From the NCBI GenBank assembly GCA_000146045.2, contig BK006949.2, positions 608,001 to 672,000 on the forward strand: a stretch of 64,000 bases of DNA, in the 5' to 3' direction. The DNA is from TPA_inf: Saccharomyces. Lineage: Eukaryota. A model generated the notes under the pieces. It was not told the origin of the DNA. It saw only the letters and a program-made list of their open reading frames with translations, and searched no databases. Shown here piece by piece: positions 37,273 to 38,153 of the stretch (the first letter of the stretch is position 1; every line of letters starts with the position of its first letter). A program made the position numbers and the translations under genes.

Positions 37273-37601
37273 AGATATAGAAGACCGTAAAGTAGTAGTG
37301 GGTTTGAAGCCTAAATAAGTAGTTTTGTACGTACTATTATTTTAAGAGAAGAACATCCATAGAAAAGAAAAGAAGAAAAAGAAACGAACCAGAAGAGGGT
37401 AGCAGAATCAGTCATTCACGCACCCGGCCTGCGCTGCGTGCACCGACTGCGTGCGTGCGTGATTGGTAATGCAGTGAATCATGCTTTTTCATGACGCCTC
37501 CTCCCCGCCCCTGAGCCTTCGGTGGCCGCCGAAGTCGGGTATTAATGGGCGCCCCTTTCCTGGTGTCCGGGAACCGCCTGCCGAAAACCACCCTCCGCAG
37601 G

Positions 37602-37609
37602 TCCGCGGA
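37602..37609 (+). promoter_or_regulatory. Perfect Pdr1/Pdr3 response element TCCGCGGA upstream of SPO24
   Basis: Exact palindromic PDRE inside the GC-rich island 37500-37700. A second near-match TCCGCGGc sits at 37649..37656. YPR036W-A transcription has been reported to be Pdr1-dependent. Confidence 0.55.
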
Positions 37610-37630
37610 AGGTGGGTGTGGCTGTCCCCG

Positions 37631-37681
37631 CGCAAATCCGAGATCGATTCCGCGGCGGGTCGGTCATTCTTTTCATTTGCG
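37631..37681. promoter_or_regulatory. Two MSE-like cores (CGCAAAT at 37631..37637 plus strand, and 37675..37681 minus strand) upstream of the SPO24 uORF
   Basis: Both match the CRCAAAW core of the Ndt80/Sum1 middle sporulation element. Two MSEs driving an extended mid-meiotic SPO24 transcript have been described. The flanking bases are imperfect. Confidence 0.4.
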
Positions 37682-37780
37682 CGCTAATATGCGCTGTGAC
37701 TGGCGGTTAGTCATCTGCGTGATCAATCGTTGTCATGACGCTCTATAACGTAAGAGAACTTTAGAGGGGGCTCAATTAGC

Positions 37781-37825
37781 ATGAAGAACAGACACATATA
37801 TAAGGTCTCTAGATTTCTCCAATAG
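37781..37825 (+). promoter_or_regulatory. 15-codon upstream ORF (MKNRHIYKVSRFLQ*) in the SPO24 leader
   Basis: An ATG at 37781 opens 14 sense codons plus TAG, 125 nt upstream of the SPO24 ATG. A 15-codon uORF in the extended meiotic SPO24 transcript has been described. Confidence 0.5.
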
Positions 37826-37949
37826 CTCAACTCTCACAATTGTTTCCTCTAGTCCTTGTAAAATATAAAAAATCATCATCAAACAAGCAACTACAAAACA
37901 GCTTTACTGACAACTCACACAAATAACACAAAAAACAAAAATTTCAACA

Positions 37950-38153
37950 ATGGTCGCCTTTTTAGAACTAACTTCTGACGTTTCTCAACCTTTTGTCATC
38001 CCATCTCTTTCGCCAGTCTCTCAGCCAAGCTCAAGAAAGAACTCTGACGCAAACGTCGATGACCTGAATCTGGCTATTGCCAATGCCGCTCTTTTGGATG
38101 CCTCTGCTTCAAGCCGCTCACACTCCAGAAAAAACTCTTTGTCTCTGTTGTAA
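37950..38153 (+). CDS. SPO24: Spo24 (YPR036W-A), small 67-aa sporulation protein
   Basis: 67-codon ORF MVAFLELTSDVSQPFVIPSLSP... at the position expected between VMA13 and ERV2. S-rich and preceded by a TATA box (TATATAAGG near 37796). Confidence 0.72.
   Translation: MVAFLELTSDVSQPFVIPSLSPVSQPSSRKNSDANVDDLNLAIANAALLDASASSRSHSRKNSLSLL

Follow-up and report, generated by a model that had tools for sequence, protein, structure and literature searches.

The GC-rich region upstream of SPO24 in Saccharomyces cerevisiae as a probable composite, multi-input promoter

The window analysed here is a 64 kb stretch of S. cerevisiae chromosome XVI, with VMA13, SPO24 (YPR036W-A), ERV2 and TIP41 following each other on the map (Table 1). 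The comparison set consisted of S. cerevisiae together with S. paradoxus, S. mikatae, S. kudriavzevii, S. arboricola and S. uvarum, and both the synteny around SPO24 and the SPO24 CDS itself are intact in all six species. Chance levels of motifs were taken from dinucleotide shuffles of the region 37400-37770.

Table 1. Genes and promoter features around SPO24. Positions are those of the 64 kb window.
Feature	Position	Strand	Remark
VMA13	35836-37272	+	ORF identification
GC-rich upstream activating region of SPO24	37401-37770		58% GC overall
Distal block AGTGAATCAT...ATGACGCC	37473-37498		AGTGAATCAT invariant; ATGACGCC in 5/6 species
GC peak	37500-37612		about 69% GC in S. cerevisiae; composition conserved, sequence not
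Palindrome TTCGG-N6-CCGAA (TTCGGTGGCCGCCGAA) with URS1-like TGGCCGCCGA (37523-37532)	37518-37533		P=0.0007 (shuffle)
Perfect PDRE TCCGCGGA, Pdr1/Pdr3 site	37602-37609		-348 from ATG
MSE1, CGCAAAT at 37631-37637, in conserved block CCCGCGCAAATCCG	37627-37640	+	kept in 5/6 species; CGAAAAT in S. mikatae
Second PDRE-like site GATTCCGCGGC, one perfect half-site	37646-37656		identical in 5/6 species
MSE2, ATTTGCG (CGCAAAT on minus)	37675-37681	-	motif scan
Block CGGTTAGTCATCTGCGTGATCAA, TTAGTCAT invariant; AP-1 (Yap/Gcn4-type)-like	37704-37726		identical in at least 5/6 species over 23 bp; factor predicted
Blocks GTCATGACGCT and ATAACGTAA	37732-37753		ATGACGCT and ATAACGTAA invariant in six species
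uORF MKNRHIYKVSRFLQ*	37781-37825	+	15 codons, 14 aa and stop
TATA box TATATAAG, followed by G (37797-37805)	37797-37804	+	-153 from ATG, inside uORF
SPO24 (YPR036W-A) CDS	37950-38153	+	ORF, 67 aa, Pfam PF22044
ERV2	38448-39038	-	ORF identification
TIP41	39305-40375	+	ORF identification

The highest 200-bp GC value of the 64 kb, 0.65 at 37417-37616, lies in the spacer upstream of SPO24, with the next-highest peak of the window at 0.565, and 37500-37690 has 63.9% GC against 38.3% in the whole window. These figures agree with a sequence-only reading of the window, which had put the GC content at about 65% over about 200 bp and at 60-68% between 37500 and 37690. Conservation of the block in related species had been named beforehand as one test of that reading, and the block is kept in all six Saccharomyces species, with a GC peak of 0.625-0.72 at the same place. 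The part proximal to the peak, 37613-37770, is conserved like coding DNA, showing 85% identity across species compared with 82-89% in coding sequences and 58-63% in other spacers.

Conservation equal to that of coding DNA, together with ORFs of 44-68 aa on both strands and a minimum free energy z-score of -2.1, might indicate that the block hides an unannotated small protein or a structured RNA gene and is not promoter DNA, but we consider this very improbable. The overlapping ORFs on both strands had been taken as spurious, and the four in the GC block indeed carry frameshifts or early stops in each of the other five species, whereas the SPO24 CDS is intact. A search of Rfam with 36800-38500 at E≤1 gave no match, and RNAalifold on the six-species alignment of 37600-37770 detected no covariation (term 0.06), with predicted pairs that are nearly all invariant; the mild folding bias can be ascribed to the palindromic factor sites. 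The block conceals neither an RNA gene nor a conserved ORF. A relic of a lost gene was also considered and rejected, since blastn and tblastx against the corresponding spacers of Maudiozyma/Kazachstania relatives, which are 2.1-2.4 kb long, found nothing beyond the TATA region and an A-rich leader. The ORFs of the M. humilis spacer resemble GC-driven noise.

The perfect PDRE that the sequence-only reading had reported is present at the position given and is the sole exact copy in the 64 kb (P=0.012, local shuffle). It is retained in S. cerevisiae, S. paradoxus and S. mikatae, with the variants CCCGCGGA in S. kudriavzevii and TCCGCGGG nearby in S. uvarum, and none in S. arboricola. The near-copy pointed out at 37649 reads TCCGCGGc (37649-37656) and is part of the second PDRE-like site (TTCCGCGGC), which is kept in five of the six species compared with three for the perfect PDRE. 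Two CCGCGG in 37400-37770 have a P of 0.04 by dinucleotide shuffle, and a one-mismatch PDRE scan of the window gives 10 matches against 8.45 expected, so that the second site is not significant by itself. SPO24 was found as a Pdr1-regulated transcript by Miura 2001, as cited in the text of Hurtado 2014 (PMC4134269). In Nikolov et al. 2022 (PMC9005695), Rtt106 ChIP-seq peaks on the SPO24 PDRE, and pdr1 pdr3 cells retain hardly any Rtt106 at promoters with a PDRE. In addition, SPO24 has been published as epistatic with pdr1 pdr3 in tetrad formation. A mutation of the PDRE, or a PDRE driving the short form of the mRNA specifically, is not reported in the accessible literature.

In carrying a PDRE, TCCG(C/T)GGA, the SPO24 promoter is similar to the PDR5-type promoters, and PDR5, PDR15 and SNQ2 are displayed beside SPO24 for the Rtt106 peak at the PDRE (PMC9005695). 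PDR5 has four PDREs, however, against one perfect PDRE and one half-perfect site in SPO24, where MSEs lie among these sites and transcription also begins at a second, meiotic start, and Spo24 is a prospore-membrane protein, unlike the PDR5-type transporters. Both promoters contain a URS1-like element, TTGCCGCCGA in PDR5 and TGGCCGCCGA in SPO24, and Ume6 is enriched on the purified PDR5 promoter.

The URS1-like element of SPO24 matches the Ume6 consensus TAGCCGCCGA at nine of ten positions. The sequence-only reading had recognised it as a URS1 reverse complement, and GCCGCCGA is found at 37525-37532 as stated, with a P of 0.04 for the 8-mer and of 0.47 for the GGCGGC core alone. All six species have a GGCGGC/GCCGCC core in this stretch of the promoter, the one of S. 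uvarum lying close by without aligning to the others. The expression expected of an early-meiotic Ume6/URS1 gene, with vegetative repression and early induction, does not fit the SPO24 data well; the short form is reported at all stages of meiosis, the uORF region is the only part stated to be undetectable in log phase (PMC4134269), and the published heat map includes log-phase haploid and diploid samples. SPO24 was not found as a Ume6 target in our literature search.

Zinc-cluster proteins of the Ppr1 type have the consensus CGG-N6-CCG with TT/AA flanks. The palindrome at 37518-37533 has this pattern and is a predicted site of that type, overlapping the URS1-like element; the full palindrome is found in two of the six species and the CGG-N6-CCG spacing in four. 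A CGG-N10-CCG pair had been placed at 37565-37580; the pair exists, but at 37568-37583, and it is at chance level (P=0.24, shuffle) and present in S. cerevisiae and S. paradoxus only, so no Put3-type pair that exceeds chance and is conserved was found at 37568-37583. Any CGG/CCG pair is likewise at chance level (P=0.21, shuffle). The 18 CGG/CCG triplets exceed the 12.3 of mononucleotide shuffles (P=0.04) but not the 17.1 of dinucleotide shuffles (P=0.44), indicating that their density follows mostly from the G+C and CpG content. The proposal that half-site density is a sign of further zinc-cluster regulators therefore fails, as the density is that expected for the dinucleotide composition and the N10 pair occurs in two species only.

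The CGCAAAT cores of two MSEs, claimed at 37631 and 37675, were both recovered, and the pair has a P of 0.027 by local shuffle. The full 9-bp consensus gNCRCAAAW opens with a weakly preferred G, where both sites have C, and as a strict pattern it has no match in any Saccharomyces species. In MSE2 the TTGCGC core is invariant, the hexamer CGCAAA is found in five of the six species, being broken in S. paradoxus, and the final A/T in S. cerevisiae only. The evolutionarily stable sites of the promoter are the "imperfect" PDRE copy and MSE1. By 5' RACE, SPO24 gives a short mRNA and a mid-meiotic mRNA that is longer by 100±5 nt (Hurtado 2014, PMC4134269); the longer mRNA shows up at 6 h, is accompanied by the short one late in meiosis, and is nearly abolished when both MSEs are deleted (PMC4134269). 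Only two CRCAAAW matches are located upstream of the uORF in the spacer, and these must therefore be the MSE pair deleted by Hurtado. The MSE-driven, uORF-containing meiotic transcript proposed from the sequence is thus borne out by Hurtado 2014 (5' RACE and MSE deletion) and is no new discovery.

The TATATAA of the TATA box is invariant in the six species, and TATATAA(G/A) lies between -141 and -190 in each of the 11 species compared, among them Maudiozyma/Kazachstania relatives; beyond the genus Saccharomyces the promoter alignment consists of AACATATATAAG(G/C) alone. A TATA box followed by the uORF had been described, and both are present with the uORF where it was placed, but the TATA box sits within the uORF. 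The 45-nt, 15-codon uORF is carried by the long meiotic SPO24 mRNA only (PMC4134269). S. paradoxus, S. mikatae and S. uvarum lack its ATG, the remaining two species have it at a shifted position, and the uORF peptides are unrelated between species. The uORF is confined to the S. cerevisiae lineage, in keeping with its weak effect in published reporters, where its influence on translation was marginal or slightly positive.

MSE1, the second PDRE-like site and the TATA box each fall in a conserved block of the promoter. Judged by the alignment, the best-conserved elements with no assigned factor are blocks of the ATGAC/TTAGTCA type, not zinc-cluster sites. Six ATGAC/GTCAT half-sites form an array that includes TTAGTCAT and GTCATGAC, and the blocks at 37732-37753 are located at or beside the predicted start of the long transcript. 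The promoter of SPO24 is strongly inducible. YPR036W-A has rank 1 of all genes for 3AT-induced nucleosome disruption (Cole 2011), it belongs to the 70 sulfometuron-induced genes that show the strongest H3 eviction (≥30% H3 loss), and the output of a SPO24 promoter reporter at 24 h was above the highest TDH3 promoter reading of the same study. An input from a bZIP protein (Gcn4 or a Yap protein) through the ATGAC array would, if true, account for the strong response to 3AT and sulfometuron. The amino-acid-starvation promoters, such as ARG1 and HIS4, are highly inducible like that of SPO24, which tops the 3AT chromatin-disruption ranking, but a perfect TGACTCA is absent from the SPO24 promoter, which has TTAGTCA and ATGAC half-sites only. 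Gcn4 at SPO24 is given as 'ND' in Cole 2011, and the accessible literature contains no demonstration of direct Gcn4 binding to SPO24. As both inducers are also xenobiotics, the response could instead run via Pdr1.

With a probability of roughly 0.9, the region is a composite, multi-input promoter of SPO24. Its GC-rich upstream region of about 370 bp (37401-37770) holds interleaved sites, namely the URS1-like palindrome, two Pdr1/Pdr3-type sites, two Ndt80 MSEs and the ATGAC/TTAGTCA-type blocks. In vegetative cells and in cells stressed by drugs or starvation, bound activators, with Pdr1/Pdr3 at the PDRE, would use the TATA box at 37797, and the short mRNA should start at about 37835-37840. In mid-meiosis Ndt80 on the MSEs would lead to a start near 37735-37740, some 100 nt upstream of the short one. 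We infer both start sites from published fragment sizes, and likewise the kind of factor that may read the ATGAC-type blocks. The long transcript would cross the TATA box and include the 14-aa uORF.

This geometry, in which the long transcript must pass both the TATA box and the short start site, is also that of a repressive LUTI, which would silence the proximal promoter in cis and be poorly translated through its uORF. Such LUTIs, for example that of NDC80, are among the meiotic 5'-extended, uORF-bearing isoforms, of which there is an Ndt80-driven class. SPO24 shares with the Ndt80-driven extended isoforms a distal Ndt80-dependent start, an upstream ORF and a transcript that runs across the proximal promoter. 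After deletion of the MSEs total SPO24 mRNA is not lowered, being unchanged or up to 2.5-fold higher (PMC4134269), and this would fit relief of interference. The same deletion impaired sporulation rescue (PMC4134269), however, so the long form appears useful and even needed for full function. With a uORF that is not conserved and non-repressive in reporters, SPO24 thus lacks the defining repressive features of a LUTI; moreover, the two forms coexist late in meiosis, and no link between SPO24 and LUTIs was found in our literature search. We therefore regard a LUTI as quite unlikely, and retain the composite promoter with two start sites.

The sites of the composite promoter lie in and beside a GC peak whose composition is held while the sequence is not. 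Within 37500-37612 the identity to S. cerevisiae is 0.675 and 25 of the 167 columns of the six-species alignment are invariant, yet the GC content is 65-74% in every one of the six species. The variable and indel positions alone have 60-72% GC compared with 27-55% in the neighbouring spacers, and S-to-W differences are balanced by W-to-S ones. From the alignment, the peak seems to be maintained as composition rather than sequence. The cause of the high GC content that enters our best explanation is one we infer. It is possible, if tentative, that the GC-richness is itself functional, with 37500-37612 kept at about 65-70% GC as nucleosome-favouring DNA. Activating sites and the TATA box would then be covered until strong activators evict the histones, giving a very large on/off range.

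G+C content is linked to intrinsic nucleosome occupancy, and besides the constancy of composition at variable and indel positions, the first rank of YPR036W-A for 3AT nucleosome disruption and the H3 loss upon induction argue for such a lid; if real, the lid would explain that top rank. On the other hand, PDRE-containing, Rtt106-bound promoters as a class have unusually wide nucleosome-depleted regions in rich medium (PMC9005695), and the GC block is missing in the AT-rich relative M. saulgeensis, where the GC fraction upstream of SPO24 peaks at 0.375. That a lid of about 110 bp (37500-37612) under composition constraint and the array of six half-sites as bZIP (Gcn4/Yap) input hold jointly is somewhat more doubtful than the lid by itself.

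Double-strand-break hotspots in yeast are mostly located in promoters and correlated with local G+C. Accordingly, GC-biased gene conversion at a meiotic recombination hotspot in the promoter could have produced the GC-richness as a neutral side effect with no regulatory meaning, and a composition held without sequence conservation is compatible with this. No comparable GC rise is seen in the adjacent ERV2-TIP41 promoter, however, and the invariant columns inside the GC peak are 84% GC, indicating that sequence constraint accounts for some of the GC content; gene conversion is an unlikely cause.

Two mRNA forms, the requirement for MSEs, Pdr1 dependence and Pdr1/3-dependent loading of a cofactor at the PDRE have been published by others; the positions of the elements, the chance levels of the motifs and their conservation come from the present analysis. 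Hurtado, Kim Guisbert and Sontheimer 2014 (PMC4134269) treat the same locus, with its two forms, uORF, MSEs and Pdr1 origin, but their text deals with neither GC-richness, a PDRE sequence, URS1 nor promoter conservation (0 matches for 'PDRE' and 'GC-rich'). The proposed composition constraint and the ATGAC array of the SPO24 promoter are absent from the accessible literature. The database description of SPO24 presumably also summarises the two-start architecture, the MSEs, the uORF and the link to Pdr1 and the PDRE. As a discovery the composite promoter of SPO24 is therefore of little importance, being already known. What is sharpened here is the lineage-specific uORF, the identity of the stable sites, the failure of the argument from zinc-cluster density and the compositional nature of the GC peak, and this peak may be a handy small test case for selection of nucleosome-favouring DNA in yeast promoters.

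The window belongs to S. cerevisiae chromosome XVI. The protein of its 67-aa ORF between VMA13 and ERV2 contains Pfam PF22044 and matches database entries for "Sporulation protein 24" at 100% identity, and the region studied is therefore the VMA13 to SPO24/YPR036W-A spacer of 677 bp. The GC content at 37500–37690 is 63.9% against 38.3% in the whole window, and the highest 200-bp value of the 64 kb is 0.65 (37417–37616) with 0.565 as second-best, which bears out the GC-rich island that the sequence-only reading had placed upstream of SPO24. All the elements named in it were found, but its CGG-N10-CCG pair was placed three bases off, the true position being 37568–37583, and the TATA box, described as preceding the uORF, sits within it. 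At 37316–37331, 44 nt past the VMA13 stop codon, is TAAGTAGTTTTGTACG, in which GTAGTTTTGTACG is invariant in 6/6 Saccharomyces species; it is probably a VMA13 3'-end formation signal of the TAG...TAGT...TTT type. The stretch 38350–38449, with only 13% GC, is the meeting point of the convergent SPO24 and ERV2 3' ends and is preceded by a run of 13 Ts at about 38234–38246; it is probably ordinary terminator DNA.

Genes, promoter elements and conserved runs around the VMA13–SPO24 spacer
Feature	Position	Strand	Remark
VMA13	35836–37272	+	ORF list
SPO24/YPR036W-A, 67-aa ORF	37950–38153	+	ORF list
ERV2	38448–39038	-	ORF list
TIP41	39305–40375	+	ORF list
Pdr1/Pdr3 site (PDRE) TCCGCGGA	37602–37609		sole exact copy in window
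Second PDRE-like site TCCGCGGc	37649–37656		
URS1-like 8-mer GCCGCCGA	37525–37532		
MSE1, core CGCAAAT	37631–37637	+	
MSE2, core CGCAAAT	37675–37681	-	reverse complement
TATA box TATATAAG	37797–37804		
uORF encoding MKNRHIYKVSRFLQ*	37781–37825		
Conserved run AGTGAATCAT	37473–82		
Conserved run GTGGCTGT	37618–25		
Conserved run CGGTTAGTCATCTGCGTGATCAA	37704–26		kept in at least 5/6 species; TTAGTCAT invariant
Conserved run ATGACGCT	37735–42		
Conserved run ATAACGTAA	37745–53		
ATGAC/GTCAT copies	37411, 37491, 37663, 37710, 37732/37735		span 37411–37742

Chance levels were taken from shuffles of 37400–37770 that preserve the dinucleotide content and thus allow for the GC-richness. The perfect PDRE has P=0.012, the two cores of the Ndt80 middle sporulation element (MSE) P=0.027, and the two CCGCGG copies and the URS1 8-mer P=0.04 each, while neither the CGG-N10-CCG pair (P=0.24) nor CGG/CCG pairs of any 0–12 bp spacing (P=0.21) are in excess. 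CGG/CCG triplets number 18 in 37500–37690, compared with 12.3 by mononucleotide expectation (P=0.04) and 17.1 by dinucleotide expectation (P=0.44), and an excess over the latter is likewise absent in the other five Saccharomyces species, so that a sequence "packed with CGG" follows from its G+C and CpG content. The packing was accurately described, but a density at dinucleotide expectation does not speak for the additional zinc-cluster regulators proposed from it. A perfect palindrome, TTCGGTGGCCGCCGAA (TTCGG-N6-CCGAA, 37518–37533, shuffle P=0.0007), overlaps the URS1-like TGGCCGCCGA; the S. paradoxus version is TTCGGCGGCCGCCGAA, with URS1 cores on both strands, and the spacing of the palindrome agrees with the Ppr1 consensus.

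The expected MSE-driven, uORF-carrying meiotic transcript is already published. Hurtado et al. 2014 (PMC4134269) found a short SPO24 mRNA throughout meiosis and, appearing at mid-meiosis, a form that is longer by 100±5 nt and includes the 15-codon uORF; they verified the latter with qRT-PCR, primer extension and 5' RACE. Two upstream MSEs are needed for the long form, which is drastically lowered by their deletion, and deletion of both weakens rescue of the sporulation defect (PMC4134269). Only two CRCAAAW matches are found upstream of the uORF in the spacer, and these must therefore be the deleted MSEs. According to papers citing Miura et al., SPO24 was first identified in 2001 as a Pdr1-regulated transcript. 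An Rtt106 ChIP-seq summit coincides with the SPO24 PDRE, shown beside PDR5, PDR15 and SNQ2, and pdr1 pdr3 cells lose nearly all Rtt106 binding at such promoters (Nikolov et al. 2022, PMC9005695). SPO24 is also epistatic with PDR1/PDR3 in four-spore ascus formation (2026 paper). The two mRNA forms, the MSE dependence of the long one, the Pdr1 dependence and the Pdr1/3-dependent cofactor loading at the PDRE were thus established by others; element positions, chance levels of the named motifs and conservation come from this analysis. The central interpretation is a restatement of known biology: the observation is confirmed; the interpretation has partial support, and most of it had been published before. 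That the PDRE drives the short form is a prediction. A further control layer, unrelated to the promoter, concerns the SPO24 mRNA, which according to published CLIP data bears m6A and in early meiosis is a target of the m6A reader Pho92 (PMC9731578).

The reporter fragment of Hurtado et al. comprises 95 nt "from the 5'-extended region", namely 43 nt, the uORF and 7 nt (PMC4134269), and together with the extension of 100±5 nt this layout would place the long start at about 37735–37740 and the short one at about 37835–37840. The MSEs would then lie about 55–105 bp upstream of the long start and the TATA box about 35–40 bp upstream of the short start, and the long transcript would have to traverse the proximal core promoter. 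This geometry allows transcriptional interference with the proximal promoter, and total mRNA that is unchanged or higher after MSE deletion is compatible with it (PMC4134269); the SPO24 long form, however, does not show the repressive features that define long undecoded transcript isoforms (LUTIs). Immediately 5' of the uORF, and at or close to the long start placed above, there is a stress-response-type AGGGG core (37762–37769) that 5/6 species retain.

The SPO24 loci of S. paradoxus, S. mikatae, S. kudriavzevii, S. arboricola and S. uvarum were compared with that of S. cerevisiae. The gene order VMA13-SPO24-ERV2 is kept in all five, and a GC peak of 0.625–0.72 is present at equal distance from the ATG in every Saccharomyces locus, so the GC block is conserved, as the sequence-only reading had needed. 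Four ORFs of 44–68 aa inside the block, rightly called spurious, are frameshifted or stopped early in 5/5 other species, where the SPO24 CDS is intact, and are excluded as genes; an RNA gene is excluded as well, with no Rfam family match in 36800–38500 at E<=1 and no covariation in RNAalifold on the six-species alignment of 37600–37770 (term 0.06, nearly all pairs invariant). Mean identity to S. cerevisiae is 0.854 in 37613–37770, 0.82–0.89 in the four flanking coding sequences, 0.675 in the GC maximum (37501–37612) and 0.58–0.63 in other spacers.

Among the six species the perfect PDRE is found only in S. cerevisiae, S. paradoxus and S. mikatae, with CCCGCGGA in S. kudriavzevii, TCCGCGGG nearby in S. 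uvarum and no counterpart in the S. arboricola promoter; its "near-copy" GATTCCGCGGC is identical in 5/6. MSE1, inside CCCGCGCAAATCCG, and the hexamer of MSE2 are each retained in 5/6 species, the full MSE2 core only in S. cerevisiae. The URS1 core GGCGGC/GCCGCC lies within the same promoter part in all six (in S. uvarum nearby and non-aligned), and the CGG-N10-CCG pair is limited to S. cerevisiae and S. paradoxus. The TATATAA of the TATA box does not vary among the six, and TATATAA(G/A) occurs at -141 to -190 in 11/11 species including Maudiozyma/Kazachstania relatives, in which nothing else aligns. In these relatives (L006–L010, upstream of position 2501) VMA13 and SPO24 are 2.1–2.4 kb apart, three times as far as in Saccharomyces, and no noteworthy gene was called in between; in M. 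humilis two perfect PDREs lie about 1.8–1.9 kb upstream, and a distinct block rich in GC covers -622 to -422.

Conservation does not extend to the uORF. In S. paradoxus, S. mikatae and S. uvarum, ACC or CCA stands in place of its ATG; S. kudriavzevii and S. arboricola have the ATG at a shifted position and would encode unrelated 28-aa and 31-aa peptides. The lack of conservation argues against a conserved peptide or translational switch. This agrees with its weak effect in reporters, where the influence on translation was marginal and positive if anything (PMC4134269).

Published data also reveal a very strong response of the promoter outside meiosis: YPR036W-A tops the genome-wide ranking for 3AT-induced nucleosome disruption, is one of 70 sulfometuron-induced genes that lose at least 30% of their H3, and at 24 h its promoter reporter exceeded the highest TDH3 promoter reading of the same study. 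The response to 3AT and sulfometuron may run through Gcn4, Pdr1 or another factor.

In the segment homologous to 37500–37612 only 25 of 167 columns are invariant, and GC is 65–74% in 6/6 species. Variable and indel positions alone have 60–72% GC, compared with 27–55% in three neighbouring spacers, and S-to-W and W-to-S interspecies differences are in balance, indicating that composition is maintained without sequence conservation. The peak may reflect selection for DNA that favours nucleosomes, in which case the extreme chromatin switch of SPO24 would fit, or turnover of GC-rich factor sites, or a recombination hotspot with GC-biased gene conversion. Not every relative has such a block: in the AT-rich M. 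saulgeensis the DNA upstream of SPO24 shows no GC peak.

The longest conserved runs in the six-species alignment correspond to none of the motifs named earlier. ATGAC/GTCAT pentamers occur six times in 37400–37770 compared with 0.65 expected, and none of 3000 shuffles gave six, a P that is optimistic because the motif was picked after the alignment was seen. The cluster is the densest of its kind in the 64-kb window. Both the palindrome GTCATGAC and the invariant TTAGTCAT belong to it, and blocks retained in at least 5/6 species hold four or more of the six copies. Judged from the motif, the copies may be bZIP half-sites or AP-1-like sites. The residual points of interest, both modest, are these ATGAC-type blocks and the conservation of the GC peak as composition.
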